29,035 nucleotides of DNA from a virus (Duplodnaviria > Heunggongvirae > Uroviricota > Caudoviricetes). Below, piece after piece: positions 1 through 10,644 of this stretch (the first letter of the stretch is position 1; every line of letters begins with the position of its first letter). The notes under the pieces were generated by a model. The model was not told the origin of the DNA, did no database searches, and was given only the letters and a program-made list of their open reading frames with translations. Made by a program: the position numbers and the translations under genes. The stretch lies in IMG/VR virus record IMGVR_UViG_2671180727_000026. One strand, written 5' to 3'.

Positions 1-192
1 TTAATCCCCCACCAGCTTACTTTCTTCCTCAATGAGGAAACTAGCGACACTTCCCGAAAGGCGCGCCAGTAGGCTCGCCAGCGCGGATATATCAGCATCT
101 GTAATTTTGTTCGGGTATACCTCAAGAAGGCGGCAAATAATTTCTGTCTGGTGCGCACGTTCAGCGGCTTCGTGTAATGTGATTTCCTGCAT
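1..192 (-). CDS. hypothetical small protein (63 aa)
   Basis: Complete ORF with ATG start at 190-192 and stop at 1-3; start overlaps stop of upstream ORF by 1 nt (TAATG), suggesting translational coupling. No family recognised. Confidence 0.3.
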   Translation of the reverse strand: MQEITLHEAAERAHQTEIICRLLEVYPNKITDADISALASLLARLSGSVASFLIEEESKLVGD

Positions 193-377
193 TAATGCAC
201 CTCTTTTAATTCATACACTGCTGAAATAATGACTTGTGATAAGCCATATTCTGATGATTCGCTTCTCACCGCAGCAATAGCCGTCTGAACATTAACAGCC
301 TTCACGTTCTGAGTGATACCAATTGTGTGGCCCAGTGGGTTAACAGCTCGGGCAAATACACGGAAGGTTTTAAGCAC
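192..377 (-). CDS. hypothetical small protein (61 aa)
   Basis: ORF with GTG start; overlaps the upstream ORF end by 8 nt and the downstream ORF start by 1 nt, forming a gap-free chain on the minus strand. No family recognised. Confidence 0.28.
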   Translation of the reverse strand: MLKTFRVFARAVNPLGHTIGITQNVKAVNVQTAIAAVRSESSEYGLSQVIISAVYELKEVH

Positions 378-573
378 GGCACACCTCCTGACGAATACGG
401 GCGGCGAATACCATCACGCAGCCAGTTGGGGATTGCTGGCGGGCTTCCTGTTCGCTGATGGCCTCGATGGTAATCATGCGCGGTTGTGCCGTACTCAAGG
501 CGATAAAACGCCAGATGTATTTATTCAGGTTGTGCGGGTCCCGCCCTTGCGGGTGTGTGGTATGATTTCTCAT
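370..573 (-). CDS. hypothetical small protein (67 aa from internal ATG at 571-573)
   Basis: ORF 370..684 in the six-frame track; first ATG gives MRNHTTHPQ... Divergent from the small RHH gene on the plus strand. No family recognised. Confidence 0.25.
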   Translation of the reverse strand: MRNHTTHPQGRDPHNLNKYIWRFIALSTAQPRMITIEAISEQEARQQSPTGCVMVFAARIRQEVCRA

Positions 574-772
574 AGCTACCTCGATACTGTTGCTATCGTT
601 GGTGGTTAGAAGCCCGTTGGTGTTCCCAGCACCTTCGGGCTTTGCTTTTTTAAGTGCCCCCGTGTTAAGGTGGTCACCTAACAATGAAAAGGCTAATTCA
701 ATAGGTGGTCACTTGTCAACGATCAAACGCGATAAAAGTCCTAAGGGTGATGGGCAATCTCCACAATTCAGA

Positions 773-904
773 ATGCGAATTTCTCCAGAGCTAAAAGAGC
801 AATTCGACAAAGAAGCGCAGAGCGACGGCATAAGCCTAGCCAACTGGCTTAAAGAATTAGGGCGCAAAGAGCTGCTACGGCGCGGTATTGAACCAAAAGG
901 ATAA
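773..904 (+). CDS. small ribbon-helix-helix (Arc/CopG-like) DNA-binding protein, putative
   Basis: C-terminal part of ORF 590..904; sequence MRISPELKEQFDKEAQSDGISLANWLKELGRKELL resembles the beta-strand plus two-helix pattern of RHH regulators. Start uncertain (alternative TTG at 713 preceded by GGTGG). Immediately upstream of the SWIM gene. Confidence 0.35.
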   Translation: MRISPELKEQFDKEAQSDGISLANWLKELGRKELLRRGIEPKG

Positions 905-931
905 GAATAATTGAAGTCAAGGAGCTAACAC

Positions 932-1288
932 ATGAAATACGAATTCTTCGCAACAAGTAGCAGTAGTTTGGATGTATACATAGTCACTGTATCAAACGAT
1001 TCTGGCTCGCTAATCATGACTTGTAATTGTCCAGCAGGAAGTAAAGGTATTCTATGTAGACACCGTAAAGCTTTAATTACCGGAAAAATCCGTGGTATAT
1101 TCACTCCCCCAAGAAGGAATAATCCTGAAAAATTACAAGAAGCTATAAATTTAATAGCCACATATGGCATAGATAAAACATTAAAGTTGTACACTGATGA
1201 GTTAGAACGAGCAGAACAGACTTGGATAAGTGTTCGCGATAATTTGAGAGCAATGATAAACGCTCTTGTTGAACCACCTAAATATTGA
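932..1288 (+). CDS. SWIM zinc-finger domain protein (118 aa), function unknown
   Basis: Strong SD (AAGGAG) 7 nt upstream of ATG; motif CNCPAGSKGILCRH fits the SWIM CxCx(n)CxH signature; AT-rich coding sequence. Confidence 0.6.
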   Translation: MKYEFFATSSSSLDVYIVTVSNDSGSLIMTCNCPAGSKGILCRHRKALITGKIRGIFTPPRRNNPEKLQEAINLIATYGIDKTLKLYTDELERAEQTWISVRDNLRAMINALVEPPKY

Positions 1289-1354
1289 ACTGTTCACATT
1301 GCCTATCAGGCGATAACCTCGTATTCTGATTAAGGCTAACTATATACTCACATT

Positions 1355-1379
1355 GGCGACCAATTCTGGTCGCCTTTAT
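1355..1379 (+). terminator. rho-independent terminator downstream of the SWIM gene
   Basis: GGCGACCA-attc-TGGTCGCC stem-loop followed by TTTAT, sited between the convergent SWIM and DUF2971 genes. Confidence 0.5.
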
Positions 1380-1419
1380 CCACCATTTTTATAATATCAT
1401 AGATTAAAAGTGTTAATCC

Positions 1420-2250
1420 TTACCCCCTGAATGGAATTGATGAGGATTTAATTTCCACAGAACTAAATCCTCTTGAATCCAAGAACATTTTTATACCAGC
1501 CTCAATGAAATCATAATCGTTTGTCGGGCCAATTGTAATGCTTTTAATTGGTAACTTTCTATTATCTTTATTATCAATGATGATATAAGGGATGATCCCA
1601 TTATTATTTATTCTGAAGTGCACATCTGGCATTTTCATCCACGGAGTAAATACCAATCTAAATTCATTCTCTTCGATAAAACTAGGATGTTTAAAAAATG
1701 GGATGTATTTAGATATAAATTGATACGTAGAGACCATTGTTACAAAATGATCATTCATTTCTTTAATATTAATACCATTACAAGAAAAAAACTCTCCCAA
1801 CTCCTTACTCATCTTAGTAATATCGTTATTATTTGAATATATAACATCATGTGCAACACAATTTAAATAAATATTTTGAGAAAAGCTCACAAGTTCATCC
1901 GCATCAAACTCAATGCAAACACCCTGTTTATTTCCGTAACCTCTCCACTGACTTAACTTATCGTTTTCCTTACAAAAAGAGATGCTATAAACATGTTTAT
2001 CAATCCCTTTTTCTTTTTGTAACCTCCCTTTCTCATACATGTCAAGAGACTTGAGCAAAATAGTTTTCTTATCTTTTGGAATGATATTGTCATCAACTAT
2101 TTTAATTGTATTTCGAAAGCATTCACATCCATGGTTAGACTCCTCTTTATCATTTAAGAAATATATGTTTGTAGCCCATAAAGAATTAGAGTCTAATATA
2201 CCTTTCAAACCAAAAAGATCTGTATAATGAAATATAGCCACAATGCCCAC
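1420..2250 (-). CDS. DUF2971-family protein (276 aa), function unknown
   Basis: Long ORF in a markedly AT-rich segment; contains LSQWRGYGNKQGVCIEFD, resembling the SxWxxY...GxCIxF core I associate with DUF2971. Starts 7 nt after the AlpA stop on the same strand. Start codon GTG, exact start uncertain. Confidence 0.65.
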   Translation of the reverse strand: MGIVAIFHYTDLFGLKGILDSNSLWATNIYFLNDKEESNHGCECFRNTIKIVDDNIIPKDKKTILLKSLDMYEKGRLQKEKGIDKHVYSISFCKENDKLSQWRGYGNKQGVCIEFDADELVSFSQNIYLNCVAHDVIYSNNNDITKMSKELGEFFSCNGINIKEMNDHFVTMVSTYQFISKYIPFFKHPSFIEENEFRLVFTPWMKMPDVHFRINNNGIIPYIIIDNKDNRKLPIKSITIGPTNDYDFIEAGIKMFLDSRGFSSVEIKSSSIPFRG

Positions 2251-2257
2251 CTAATAG

Positions 2258-2488
2258 TTAAGTTGTTTCCCACTCACCTCGAATCCATGCCTGCACTTCT
2301 GAAAGACGATATGCAACAGCAGTGGAACCAATCTTGATCCGCTTAGGAAATTTTCCTTCCTTCTCCAGCTTCCAGCGTGTGCTGTTCGCAAGAGTGGTTA
2401 GCTCCCGACATTCTTTCTCACGGATCATTCGGTCAATGTTAGGAATGTACTCCAGACCCTTTTTATCAACAATTGCCATTTTTTTCAT
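2258..2488 (-). CDS. alpA: AlpA-family phage transcriptional regulator / excisionase-like protein
   Basis: Small protein with ...RELTTLANSTRWKLEKEGKFPKRIKIGSTAVAYRLSEVQAWI, matching the AlpA (prophage CP4-57 regulator) HTH pattern; lies directly downstream of a P4-type integrase. Confidence 0.8.
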   Translation of the reverse strand: MKKMAIVDKKGLEYIPNIDRMIREKECRELTTLANSTRWKLEKEGKFPKRIKIGSTAVAYRLSEVQAWIRGEWETT

Positions 2489-2489
2489 G

Positions 2490-3670
2490 CTAACCAGCCT
2501 TTTGTTTGAGGATTGTCACTTTTGAATCAGCAGCTGCGATGCTATTGAGATATGTAGTCCAGAGTTCCAGAGCATCCAGTTTTTTAGCCATAAACTTACT
2601 CCGGTTGTAAACACCTGCCACGCCAGGTAGCGCATGGCCTAACAGTTGTTCTACTACATAAAATTCAACACCGAGATCACTTAGATGAGTAGATAGCGTT
2701 CTTCTAAGGTCGTGTAGTGACCATTGTTTTTCATGGCCCAAACGTTTACCGATTTTCCCCCCAATCTTGCTTACGCTTTCTCTAATTCGCAGACTTCCCA
2801 GCACATAACCAGTATGTTTTGTCTCTTCGTGAACATCCGTTACCCACTGTCGTAAACAGTCCAAACCCAACTTTCGAGATCCCATTCGCTCCATTCTGAT
2901 AATCGGGCTTCACTCATTCGACATCCAAATACTGTACAAAGCACAAACATTTTTCGCGTGTATTCAGACATTAGTTTTAAATCAGGCTCGACAAAAATTG
3001 CCTTCCAGAGCTGGCCGAGTTCGGCTTCATCCAGAACCCGATCCCGCTTACCTGCAATCTGCCCCACATCACTCATGCGCAAATCCTTTAAAGCATCACA
3101 CGTCGCGTACTGGCGTACCCGACAAAAACGAAGAGCTAATTTAGTGTCAGAAAAAACATACGCCGCCATAACTGGTGCATTACGTTTAATTCGGTCAAAA
3201 CAGTCCAGCCATTCATATAGGTGAGTGTCATTTACGGGCAAATGACCGATATAGGGAAAGATATGCTTTCGAAATCTGCCAAGCGTTACAGCATGAGTTT
3301 TACGACGCACCTTACAGTAATTTTCATACCAGTAATTTAGTGCATCCTCCACTGTAACTGGCTTTAAGCGTTCTTCAGCCTGAATCTTAATCTGGATACG
3401 CGGATCACGTTTGTCAGCCAACCAACCACGGCACTCGTCGCGCTTTTCCCTTGCCTGTTTGAGTGACATATCAGGATATTTACCCAACGTTAGCCAGACC
3501 GGAGCAGCCCGGCCACCTGCTAACCTGTAGAAGAAAACAAAGCTCACAGCCCCTTTAGTACTCACACGAATAGAAAGCCCCTTTCCATCAGCAATGGTGA
3601 TCTGCTTTTCTCTGGGTTTCCCCAGATATCCTTTAAGCGCTTTGTCGCTCAGTTTGTTCTCGCCAGCCAT
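2490..3670 (-). pseudogene. P4-type tyrosine integrase, apparently frameshifted (N-terminal and catalytic parts in different frames)
   Basis: ORF 2840..3721 encodes the N-terminal arm/SAM-like part (GKGLSIRVSTKGAVSFVFFYR...); ORF 2490..2894 encodes the catalytic C-terminus (HDLRRT, LLGHA, VAGVYNR with the tyrosine nucleophile). They overlap at 2840-2894 in different frames. Confidence 0.75.
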
Positions 3671-3802
3671 TTTTAGCCCCAAAAAGCAATACAAGCTGCA
3701 ATACAGAGATGATTGCAACACACAGATAACGAGGAAAATTCAGTGAAAGCACCAGATAAACTTATTCTTTATTATCAAAAGATTAAGTGTAAAAACCAGC
3801 AA

Positions 3803-4078
3803 CTACACGAAAGCCTCAGAAAGCCATGCTAAGTGCTTGGGCTTGACATATCCCGGCGTAAATTCAGAGGTGGAGCCGCCACGGGAACGGATAACCTCAC
3901 CGGAAACAATCGGCGAAACGTACAGCGCCATGTTTACCAGTCCCGGAATTTGTGAGAGATAGACTTTCTCCGTAGTGAAGGGATAGCTCTCACGGAAAAA
4001 GAGACGCAGAAACAGCGGATCAAACTTAAATTTCTGCTCATTTGCCGCCAGCAGCTGGGCGGTTGTGTACATCGACAT
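3803..4078 (-). pseudogene. E: major capsid protein E, 5' remnant only (about the first 90 codons)
   Basis: Translation MSMYTTAQLLAANEQKFKFDPLFLRLFFRESYPFTTEKVYLSQIPGLVNMALYVSPIVSGEVIRSRGGSTSEFTPGYVKPKH matches the lambda gpE N-terminus, then diverges (LAWLSEAFV-stop). Lambda-like sequence ends near 3833. Confidence 0.85.
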
Positions 4079-4133
4079 AAAAAAATCCCGTAAAAAAAGC
4101 CGCACAGGCGGCCTTTAGTGATGAAGGGTAAGG

Positions 4134-4466
4134 TTAAACGATGCTGATTGCCGTTCCGGCAAACGCGGTCCGTTTTTTCGTCTCGTCGCTGGCAGCCTCC
4201 GGCCAGAGCACATCCTCATAACGGAACGTGCCGGACTTGTAGAACATCAGTGTGGTGCTGGTCTGGTCAGCATCAACCGCCAGAATGCCAACGGCAACAC
4301 CGTCGGTGGTGCCATCCCACGCAACCAGCTTACGGGTGGAGGTATCCAGCATCAGCGGGGTCATTGCAGGCGCTTTCGCACTCAATCCGCCGGGCGCGGT
4401 TGCCGTATGTGCCGGGTCACTGTTGCCCAGCGGCTGGTAATGGGTAAAGGTTTCTTTGCTCGTCAT
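4134..4466 (-). CDS. D: head decoration protein D
   Basis: [43 protein letters not shown]...AGTAISIV matches lambda gpD (110 aa). Confidence 0.9.
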
Positions 4467-10410: not shown

Positions 10411-10644
10411 ATGTCAACGAAGAACAGAACCCGCAGAACAACAACCCGCAACATCCGCTTTCCTAACCAAATGATTGAACAAATTAACATCGCTCTTGAT
10501 CAAAAAGGGTCCGGGAATTTCTCAGCCTGGGTCATTGAAGCCTGCCGCCGAAGACTGTGCTCAGAAAAAAGAGTTTCGCCTGAAGCAAACAAAGAAAAGA
10601 GTGACATTACTGAATTGCTCAGAAAGCAGGTCAGACCAGATTGA
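10411..10644 (+). CDS. small ribbon-helix-helix-like protein (77 aa), hypothetical
   Basis: Arg/Thr-rich N-terminus followed by NIRFPNQMIEQINIALDQKGSGNFSAWVIEACRRRL, an Arc/CopG-like pattern; sits beside cos, upstream of ybcV on the same strand. Confidence 0.5.
   Translation: MSTKNRTRRTTTRNIRFPNQMIEQINIALDQKGSGNFSAWVIEACRRRLCSEKRVSPEANKEKSDITELLRKQVRPD

Follow-up and report, generated by a model that had tools for sequence, protein, structure and literature searches.

A probable ribbon-helix-helix repressor gene and an optional small SWIM zinc-finger gene as a putative two-gene operon of an E. coli helper-embedded satellite

The window analyzed here is a 29,035-nt stretch of viral DNA (Caudoviricetes; IMG/VR record IMGVR_UViG_2671180727_000026), and the features of the locus under study are listed in Table 1. 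Sequence comparison shows that the locus forms the right-hand end of a helper-embedded PICI (HE-PICI) of E. coli, which has inserted into a lambdoid prophage within the capsid gene. In NZ_CP048330, which contains a full copy, parts of the split prophage capsid gene flank the element on either side, and all genes have the same orientation. The full element comprises int, alpA, an Icd-like gene, primase and SSB, along with capsid and decoration genes of its own. HE-PICIs of the "11capE" class, for example Eco567.11capE, have already been published (Mageeney et al., 2023, PMC10111431). The element resembles them in its length of ~11 kb, in the int-alpA genes, the variable zone, primase/SSB and own capsid and decoration genes, and in being inserted in a lambdoid prophage, within its major capsid gene and in the same orientation as that gene. 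It differs in that the integrase of the present copy is broken by a 56-bp deletion, as comparison with the intact gene (411 aa) of NZ_CP048330 shows. Relatives of this HE-PICI sit in terminase genes. The variable zone has been described to hold Bro-N network proteins and immunity RNAs, and the text of that publication (PMC10111431) mentions neither an RHH (ribbon-helix-helix) repressor nor a SWIM protein. It is this variable ("Bro") zone that the RHH-SWIM operon occupies.

Table 1. Features of the RHH-SWIM locus and its surroundings (positions refer to the window).
Feature	Position	Strand	Remarks
Icd-like gene, first of the leftward (replication) operon divergent from RHH	370-573	-	NCBIfam phage_ICD_like, E = 1.8e-18; PGAP coordinates in L001
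Conserved hairpin and T-tract	610-651	+	Inverted repeat I1, between Icd-like start and operators
Operator-like repeat O1, AGGTGGTCACCT	668-679		Quasi-palindrome; ~45 nt 5' of RHH start
Operator-like repeat O2, AGGTGGTCACTT	703-714		Overlaps RHH start codon
Probable RHH (Arc/HicB-like) repressor gene	713-904	+	63 aa; PHROG Arc-like repressor profile
Shine-Dalgarno sequence AAGGAG of SWIM gene	919-924	+	7 nt ahead of ATG
SWIM zinc-finger protein gene	932-1288	+	118 aa; Pfam SWIM above gathering score
Terminator hairpin of RHH-SWIM operon	1355-1380	+	8-bp stem, 4-nt loop, then TTTATC
DUF2971 (ADP-ribosyltransferase-fold) cargo gene	1420-2241/2250	-	PF11185, 46.2 bits (cut-off 22)
alpA (satellite excisionase/activator family)	2258-2488	-	PF05930, E = 3e-15
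Satellite tyrosine integrase gene	2490-3721	-	Two ORF fragments with integrase domains
Capsid 5' fragment	3803-4105

The SWIM gene had been noticed in a preliminary description of the window for its metal-ligand signature and strong Shine-Dalgarno sequence, and both hold. Residues 31-44 (CNCPAGSKGILCRH) carry the CxCxnCxH signature, and the match of the protein to Pfam SWIM (PF04434) reaches 24.1 bits (E = 2.6e-5), above the gathering score of 19.6. C31, C33, C42, and H44 are invariant in an alignment of 117 SWIM sequences, and almost all of the 150 relatives listed carry the motif. The protein matches phrog_13130 (E = 1e-82), and substitutions relative to a 74%-identical allele are distributed 28/15/67 over codon positions 1/2/3, so the ORF has both homologs and a coding signal. 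A spurious ORF was considered and rejected; the SWIM and RHH ORFs are both real. Judged by its sequence, the domain is a genuine, predicted zinc-binding module. The SWIM zinc-finger domain as such was reportedly defined by Makarova et al. in 2002. The present domain resembles it in the signature, the conserved aromatic residue Y16 and predicted β-strands followed by a helix, but here it makes up the whole N-terminal half of the protein, with nothing but a helical hairpin after it. The AlphaFold2 model (pLDDT 93.3) shows the same order, with a basic SWIM domain (residues 1-50; pI 9.8 over residues 1-64) and an acidic hairpin (residues 65-113; pI 4.9 over residues 65-118). Domain search and structure model revealed no recognizable toxin fold, enzymatic motif or membrane segment, and a PDB sequence search with the protein returned a chance-level match only. 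PGAP already has a name for the protein. As described before, the gene is AT-rich like the DUF2971 gene convergent with it (36 and 30.5% GC), while RHH has 46% and the neighboring core genes have 44-55%.

The upstream gene probably encodes an RHH regulator, as had been proposed, and its product matches the PHROG Arc-like repressor family with E = 1.2e-6; the match to Pfam HicB (19.0 bits, E = 1.4e-3) lies below the cut-off of 21. The start codon is TTG here and ATG at the identical position in relatives, and the ORF is intact with its start position kept in 10 related elements. Because the codon-position test is uninformative, as the third positions of the plus-strand frame coincide with those of an antisense ORF, the strand call is based on the intact ORF in all elements together with the Arc profile. 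In some genomes, the PGAP annotation covers the RHH gene with an ORF or pseudogene on the minus strand; some RHH alleles are called "HicB family antitoxin".

Two operator-like repeats (O1 and O2; direct repeat family D1, spacing 35 nt) accompany the RHH gene. Two such copies are found at about -45 and -10 of RHH in eight of 10 elements; in Buttiauxella, no clear repeat pair was seen upstream of RHH. The repeat sequence varies between elements yet both copies within one element match, suggesting that RHH is probably an immunity-type repressor. Moreover, residues of the RHH β-strand vary together with the repeat sequence across elements. A candidate leftward promoter with O2 in its spacer (-35 TTGACA, positions 719-714 on the minus strand) was read by eye. 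Since a consensus scan of positions 574-712 passed no sigma-70 promoter, the promoter/operator layout is our own reading of the sequences. The layout resembles the P22 immI region, in which mnt faces arc-ant. Common to both are a small RHH gene divergent from an Icd-like/ash-like (anti-repressor-type) operon and quasi-palindromic operators, putative here, that overlap divergent promoters. Comparable, too, is viral contig L108, which has an Arc-SWIM pair and, divergent from it, an Arc-ORF6N pair. Membership in the Arc/Mnt group is assigned here by profile similarity and layout, and the locus differs from immI in having two operators 35 bp apart instead of one and in a putatively repressed operon that includes replication genes. 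We know of no SWIM-like gene behind P22 mnt.

RHH and SWIM are co-oriented and separated by 27 nt, but the pair is not obligatory. RHH alleles with 89-98% DNA identity occur with no SWIM gene or with a different small ORF downstream, and in O157:H7 and other satellites RHH lacks an accompanying SWIM gene. Conversely, the identical SWIM protein is encoded behind another RHH with a different N-terminus and different operators. By these comparisons, RHH is the conserved core gene of the cassette and SWIM is an optional gene behind it. The operon ends in a stable hairpin in plus-strand orientation (GGCGACCA-ATTC-TGGTCGCC at 1355-1374, then TTTAT), with a fold z-score of -4.4 for positions 1285-1400. 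This hairpin had been taken for a terminator shared with the DUF2971 gene. However, it is kept 3' of SWIM in four elements whose cargo differs, including one compensatory pair, and inter-element homology stops just past it. As the hairpin is conserved with SWIM whatever gene lies opposite and homology ends after it, the terminator belongs to SWIM, and a shared bidirectional terminator was rejected. A consensus terminator scan flagged nothing after SWIM, this hairpin included. Upstream, the leader hairpin (610-651) shows compensatory changes in six of 14 pairs among 10 elements. A search of positions 1-4200 against Rfam (E up to 0.1) gave no match, and thus the leader hairpin is not a known C4, isrK or CI RNA; possibly it terminates an antisense RNA.

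Free-standing SWIM proteins had been considered unusual, a view that an exhaustive profile search contradicts: small SWIM proteins form 187 clusters at 50% identity, nearly all 105-125 aa in length with full-length matches. The nucleic-acid-handling domains that usually accompany SWIM modules occur here only in rare relatives, with BRCT, HhH or DnaQ-like exonuclease domains fused to the module in longer proteins (BRCT/HhH in four of ~20 longer relatives). The co-oriented RHH-SWIM pair recurs in satellites of E. coli, Klebsiella, Cedecea, and Buttiauxella. A repressor-type gene lies directly upstream of the small SWIM gene in at least 12 of 39 non-redundant viral-contig loci, compared with one of 70 control neighbors drawn from the same contigs (Fisher p = 1.2e-5); these counts are aggregate Pfam tallies based on crude ORF calling in viral contigs. 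The immediate upstream gene encodes HTH_3 in five loci, ImmA-type Peptidase_M78 in four, and Arc in three, in addition to S24/CI, and it is on the same strand as SWIM in 34 of the 39. One viral contig has a CI(S24)-SWIM pair with a convergent integrase downstream. Searching 50,697 deposited phage genomes by tblastn with four family members gave no match, and plasmids yielded two weak matches, one of them a 359-aa fusion in Burkholderia. A profile search of genome contigs with a narrower SWIM alignment found two loci only. Literature on SWIM in combination with PICI, prophage or anti-phage topics yielded nothing relevant.

We propose, at about even confidence, that RHH and SWIM form a two-gene satellite operon consisting of a quiescence repressor and an accessory binding protein, with the DUF2971 gene separate from it. 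RHH dimers would bind the element-specific O1 and O2 in the ~140-bp divergent control region, regulate their own gene and shut off the leftward Icd-like/ash-like/primase operon, so that the satellite would stay quiescent. SWIM would be transcribed together with the repressor up to its own terminator, and because of this position in the operon it would probably be made in the quiescent (lysogen-like) state. Our best guess for the protein is a non-enzymatic binding protein, which would most likely bind DNA or a replication/repair protein and thereby hinder a competing or helper phage. The BRCT, HhH and DnaQ-like fusions and the basic SWIM half hint at DNA-related partners.

Accessory genes behind prophage repressors include rexAB after cI in lambda and, in Gram-positive prophages, the sie genes that lie between repressor and integrase. 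SWIM shares with these genes the position on the same strand directly behind the repressor and between repressor and integrase, the optional occurrence and the atypical composition. It differs in having neither a sequence or fold relation to them, nor a membrane segment or known effector. By hindering other phages, SWIM would parallel the exclusion genes behind other phage repressors. The position behind the repressor fits a regulatory partner equally well as an exclusion factor.

Such a partner, acting as co-repressor, anti-repressor or sensor of a helper-phage signal, has model cases in ImmA with ImmR and in SaPI Stl, which senses helper proteins. Co-transcription with RHH at a distance of 27 nt would suit this role, and eukaryotic SWIM domains mostly mediate protein contacts. 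Furthermore, the 63-aa RHH is devoid of an oligomerization or sensor domain, whereas longer RHH proteins (93-101 aa) are encoded by the elements of K. aerogenes and E. ludwigii that have no SWIM, and in some contigs SWIM follows ImmA, itself a regulatory partner. Against this, near-identical RHH alleles exist without SWIM, one SWIM protein is paired with RHHs of different operator specificity, and SWIM genes stand behind four unrelated repressor folds (Arc, XRE-HTH, S24-CI, and ImmA), which is unexpected for a dedicated physical partner. We therefore regard a regulatory partner of the repressor as rather unlikely.

It is improbable that the pair is a type II toxin-antitoxin or addiction system with RHH as a HicB-like antitoxin and SWIM as the toxin. 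The two genes have the order and spacing usual for an RHH antitoxin and its toxin, the PGAP name and the weak HicB match point in the same direction, and an Arc-SWIM cassette is also present in an unrelated Mu-like prophage. However, the two genes are not jointly inherited, RHH often occurring without SWIM as in O157:H7, and SWIM is also found behind CI/S24 and ImmA, which are lysogeny regulators and not antitoxins. The SWIM protein moreover shows no recognizable toxin fold, enzymatic motif or membrane segment, and the putative RHH operators lie in a control region common to RHH and the divergent replication operon.

Returning to the proposed repressor operon, its separation from DUF2971 follows from the slot that extends from alpA to the SWIM terminator. 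Depending on the element, this slot is filled by DUF2971, by Bro-N, by a protein of 265 aa, by a membrane-like protein of 233 aa or by an ORF of 80 aa. DUF2971 is present in 36 of 5426 E. coli genomes, and all 36 genomes with this allele also carry this RHH-SWIM, a co-occurrence that represents a single lineage with 96-100% identity. Four other genera have DUF2971 homologs (43-60% identity) in the identical slot after alpA; these face RHH and SWIM in one genus and RHH alone in the other three. The former is Buttiauxella, where a 60%-identical DUF2971 lies opposite a divergent SWIM; DUF2971 without SWIM is found in satellites of K. aerogenes, E. ludwigii, and E. kobei. The preliminary description had suggested that RHH, SWIM and DUF2971 may form one acquired module and named co-occurrence across genomes as a check. 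The RHH-SWIM pair is indeed recurrent, but DUF2971 is swapped independently and is present with and without SWIM; the data therefore do not support a three-gene module. DUF2971 is part of the int-alpA operon and independent of the RHH-SWIM unit.

A defense module in which SWIM would serve, for instance, as regulator or antidote of DUF2971, for which DarG counteracting DarT is the model, is thus very improbable and was rejected as largely refuted by the co-occurrence data: the low GC content of both genes, the complete E. coli co-occurrence, the Buttiauxella arrangement and weak matches of both proteins to PADLOC defense candidates are outweighed by at least four other cargo genes next to SWIM, the satellites with DUF2971 and no SWIM, the homology break exactly between SWIM terminator and cargo, the position of DUF2971 in the opposite-strand alpA operon, the single-lineage origin of the co-occurrence and the activity of the Aristaios DUF2971 protein as a single gene (PMC11381338). 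Aristaios is a single-gene DUF2971 abortive-infection system of Lactococcus plasmids (PMC11381338). The gene studied here shares with it the DUF2971 domain across the protein and the position as single-gene cargo in a mobile-element hotspot, and differs in host and element type; the likeness is known here from domain and position. By this literature precedent, DUF2971 may be an Aristaios-like ADP-ribosyltransferase-fold cargo with an anti-phage role and an independent defense candidate.

Two corrections of annotation follow for elements of this type: RHH is encoded on the plus strand where PGAP puts a minus-strand ORF or pseudogene, and DUF2971 is to be listed as an independent defense candidate. 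To our knowledge, AlpA is the only known regulator of Gram-negative PICIs, and regulation of these elements has so far been explained via AlpA and, in some elements, immunity RNAs. We tentatively consider it possible that two things hold jointly, namely that small proteins composed of SWIM domain and helical hairpin are a widespread, unrecognized class of repressor-operon genes, encoding zinc-dependent binders of DNA or of replication/repair proteins that might serve in rival exclusion or in tuning the lysogeny switch, and that RHH is the missing master repressor of Gram-negative PICIs. If so, PICI regulation would gain an immunity layer from RHH and its element-specific operators, which face the replication operon, and this immunity might explain the coexistence of related satellites. 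The SWIM protein also offers a handle on a large uncharacterized family that is encoded in a region of phage genomes typical of exclusion and defense genes.

Small SWIM genes are typical of lysogeny-control modules, where they lie directly behind the repressor. Scanning with a degenerate DNA version of the motif retrieves at least 120 viral contigs, 107 of which match the SWIM family profile. Reduced to 39 non-redundant strong loci, this set places the immediate upstream gene on the same strand as SWIM in 34 cases, and the Pfam families found among these upstream genes are HTH_3 (5), Peptidase_M78 of the ImmA type (4), Arc (3), S24 and CI. Additional HTH, Arc and S24 genes occupy the second upstream position, and HTH, integrase and CII genes are found downstream. 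As a control, 70 upstream neighbours of random genes on the same contigs, at least 2 kb from SWIM, yield a single Cro/CI-type HTH among the 25 families listed. Hence, a regulator stands directly upstream at at least 12 of the 39 SWIM loci versus 1 of the 70 control positions (Fisher p = 1.2e-5). At least four unrelated repressor folds precede SWIM; this diversity speaks against a dedicated partnership by physical contact and is consistent with co-expression of an accessory gene with the repressor. One viral locus (L107) pairs CI(S24) with SWIM, and an integrase gene converges ~1.8 kb downstream. In a Mu-like prophage (L108, 3189-5277), Arc-SWIM is divergent from Arc-ORF6N (anti-repressor type), a layout resembling P22 immI; this cassette is inserted between the tail tape-measure and baseplate genes.

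The SWIM protein of the window is essentially identical to PHROG family 13130 (no known function). Its signature CNCPAGSKGILCRH spans residues 31-44, and the protein scores 24.1 bits against Pfam SWIM (gathering threshold 19.6). An alignment of 117 sequences that were pre-selected for the motif shows no variation at C31, C33, C42 and H44 and more than 90% conservation at Y16, A35 and G36; among the 150 matches listed, almost all carry it. The predicted zinc-finger identity is thus sound, as the preliminary description had proposed. Compared with a 74%-identical allele, substitutions at codon positions 1/2/3 number 28/15/67, as expected for a coding gene. A word-indexed search returns eight close relatives only. 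When 1.84 billion representatives are searched exhaustively with a profile, 187 clusters match at E up to 1e-3, and almost every one is 105-125 aa long and matched from end to end. A free-standing small SWIM protein is therefore a common architecture and not, as previously described, an unusual one. AlphaFold2 on the 117-sequence alignment (pLDDT 93.3) predicts three strands and two short helices in residues 1-50, followed by a helical hairpin (65-76/80-113); the pI is 9.8 (basic) for the N-terminal half and 4.9 (acidic) for the hairpin. None of the solved structures resembles this model.

For the upstream RHH protein, profile comparison gives a hit to the PHROG Arc-like repressors (E = 1.2e-6) and a weak Pfam HicB hit under the cut-off. 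In the window its gene begins with TTG, where relatives have ATG. Over RHH, PGAP places a 247-aa minus-strand ORF in an O157:H7 locus (L132, 5905-6648) and a derived pseudogene in another locus (L001, 14048-14314). Substitutions relative to the O157 allele (1/2/17 by codon position) cannot separate the strands, because third codon positions coincide in the plus and minus frames. The plus-strand ORF is unbroken in 10 of 10 elements and the minus ORF is interrupted. On the basis of this intact ORF and the Arc profile match, we take the plus-strand gene to be real, and the PGAP ORF is likely a shadow ORF, at least across the RHH part.

Features of the window and their positions
Feature	Position	Strand	Details
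Small ORF	1-192	-	
Small ORF	192-377	-	
Candidate antisense-RNA region	558-651	+	
Extended -10-like element	558-566		TGGTATGAT
Control-region hairpin	610-642		
T-tract	641-651		
Repeat O1	668-679		AGGTGGTCACCT; 12-nt quasi-palindrome
Repeat O2	703-714		AGGTGGTCACTT; 12-nt quasi-palindrome
RHH ORF	713-904	+	63 aa
SWIM ORF	932-1288	+	118 aa; preceded by AAGGAG
Hairpin downstream of SWIM	1355-1374		
DUF2971 gene	1420-2250	-	
Integrase gene	2490-3721	-	56 bp missing (~2854/2855); two ORFs
Helper major capsid gene (5' fragment)	3803-4105		
YnfO gene of helper prophage	10411-10644	+	

RHH is a core gene and SWIM an optional one. A sensitive DNA search with 700-1290 matches 207 E. coli genomes, only 46 of which cover both genes. 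Most of the remaining matches, including many O157:H7 strains, comprise the RHH part only (~89% identity); O157:H7 has an intact RHH ORF without a SWIM gene behind it. Of the genomes with a second RHH allele, 7 also carry SWIM and 12 lack it; in the latter, a 58-aa ORF or nothing comes after RHH. The GC content (36% for SWIM vs 46% for RHH) agrees with this division.

What the preliminary description observed is confirmed; its suggestion that RHH, SWIM and DUF2971 may form one module is half right. The RHH-SWIM pair stands: every E. coli and Klebsiella SWIM homologue examined (74% and 54% identity) has a 60-63-aa gene on its own strand 27 nt upstream, and the pair sits between the Icd-like/primase block and alpA-int. 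The third member does not belong, since SWIM occurs with other cargo and DUF2971 occurs without SWIM in three of four other genera. No DUF2971 gene is present at the examined 74% and 54% homologues; in Cedecea, the same arrangement carries a 233-aa membrane-like protein, the identical SWIM protein also adjoins a 265-aa hypothetical gene, and a near-identical one (99.7% DNA identity) adjoins Bro-N in a satellite inside a terminase gene. Conversely, DUF2971 homologues (43-60% identity) lie directly after alpA in Buttiauxella, K. aerogenes, E. ludwigii and E. kobei satellites. Facing them are RHH and a divergent SWIM in Buttiauxella only, a longer RHH (93-101 aa) with SWIM absent in K. aerogenes and E. 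ludwigii, and a 64-aa RHH alone in E. kobei. SWIM and DUF2971 are thus independent accessory genes in two facing slots. Homology between elements runs through the hairpin downstream of SWIM and ends immediately after it, and one allele has a compensatory change in the stem; this hairpin therefore belongs to the SWIM cassette and is not a terminator shared with DUF2971, as had been assumed. The cargo slot starts beyond it.

DUF2971 after alpA is recurrent satellite cargo in five genera (window; L135, L136, L138, L140-L142), and in the window it follows alpA by 16 nt on the same strand. The E. kobei gene comes with a 255-aa membrane-like protein, which by eye resembles the Cedecea cargo. The DUF2971 family is described as having an ADP-ribosyltransferase fold related to DarT (PMC12522546), and one of its members, Aristaios, provides abortive infection from a single gene (PMC11381338). 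We read DUF2971 as an independent defence candidate.

By megablast, the locus falls in E. coli, where 590-2260 is found in full in 36 of 5426 complete genomes and in part in another 146. In NZ_CP048330, the element (~11 kb) carries int, alpA, DUF2971, SWIM/RHH, Icd-like, small ORFs, primase and SSB genes, has its own major capsid and decoration genes, and cuts in two the major capsid gene of a lambdoid, Qin-like prophage. It belongs to the published helper-embedded PICI (HE-PICI) class, type '11capE', a group with Integration, Bro (dynamic), Replication and Late zones, whose description does not mention SWIM or ribbon-helix-helix proteins (PMC10111431). Of the satellite, only its right-hand 3.75 kb lies in the window; the remainder of the window is helper prophage. 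The helper major capsid gene houses the satellite in E. coli and Cedecea, and relatives are housed in a terminase gene (window; L001, L133, L134, L010), a published configuration (PMC10111431). Relative to the intact 411-aa integrase gene of NZ_CP048330, the window's copy is broken by a deletion; the satellite has probably lost the ability to excise, so that the helper capsid gene would stay interrupted permanently. The helper prophage YnfO (YlcI/YnfO, DUF3950 family) is 39-46% identical to Klebsiella and Buttiauxella RHH proteins that precede SWIM and has no detectable similarity to the window's RHH; two RHH subfamilies therefore share the slot, one of them common to helper and satellite.

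Repeats O1 and O2, spaced 35 nt apart, recur as two copies at the same places (~-45 and ~-10 from the RHH start) in 8 of 10 related elements. Their sequence varies between elements (window, AGGTGGTCAC; O157, AGGTGACCAC; related element E1, AGGTGTACAC; locus L004, GTACGTACGTAAC; Klebsiella, TGGTAGTTACCA; Cedecea, TTGTAATTACAA; E. kobei, GTGTGTACCTAT; K. aerogenes/E. ludwigii, TGTGATTTA/TGAATCACA in several copies), and the two copies within each element stay matched. The predicted DNA-reading strand of RHH changes in parallel (FRMRIS, FHMRIV, FQIRIS, KHIRFE, YQIRLA). Such a pattern is characteristic of repressor-operator specificity types. By our own reading, a minus-strand TTGACA crosses RHH codons 1-2 in six elements, with a -10-like hexamer 17-18 nt further on (TATTAT in two), and O2 would lie in the spacer of this putative leftward promoter; a consensus scan called no promoter in the window's control region. 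The most conserved part of this region is a hairpin with a T-tract, preceded by an extended -10-like element. Compensatory changes affect 6 of 14 hairpin pairs (10 elements). Together, the -10-like element, hairpin and T-tract suggest an RNA of ~80 nt that would be antisense to the Icd-like gene at its ribosome-binding site and start; the region has no Rfam match.

Neither of the two small ORFs that follow the Icd-like gene matches Pfam or NCBIfam. The PGAP annotation of a related element has an 'ash family protein' pseudogene immediately upstream of its Icd-like gene. The ash family comprises P4-type anti-repressors; thus, the leftward operon may encode a helper de-repressor. The layout, an RHH repressor facing an operon opened by Icd-like and ash-like genes, resembles P22 immI.

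Longer relatives fuse the SWIM module to BRCT (proteins P0055 and P0077; contigs L092, 3563-4624, and L021, 1703-2695), to HhH (helix-hairpin-helix; L021) and to a DnaQ-like exonuclease (P0077). The fusions are few and hint at DNA or replication/repair factors as partners. PADLOC yields only a weak match to the uncharacterised defence candidate PDC-S62, and our searches found no characterised SWIM homologue and no relevant literature. In the weakest step of the argument, and at somewhat less than an even chance, SWIM would bind non-enzymatically and thereby interfere with a rival or helper phage. The satellite is of a known kind. Two things appear to be undescribed: that these satellites have an RHH repressor with putative immunity-type operators, and that small SWIM proteins are systematically placed behind phage repressors.
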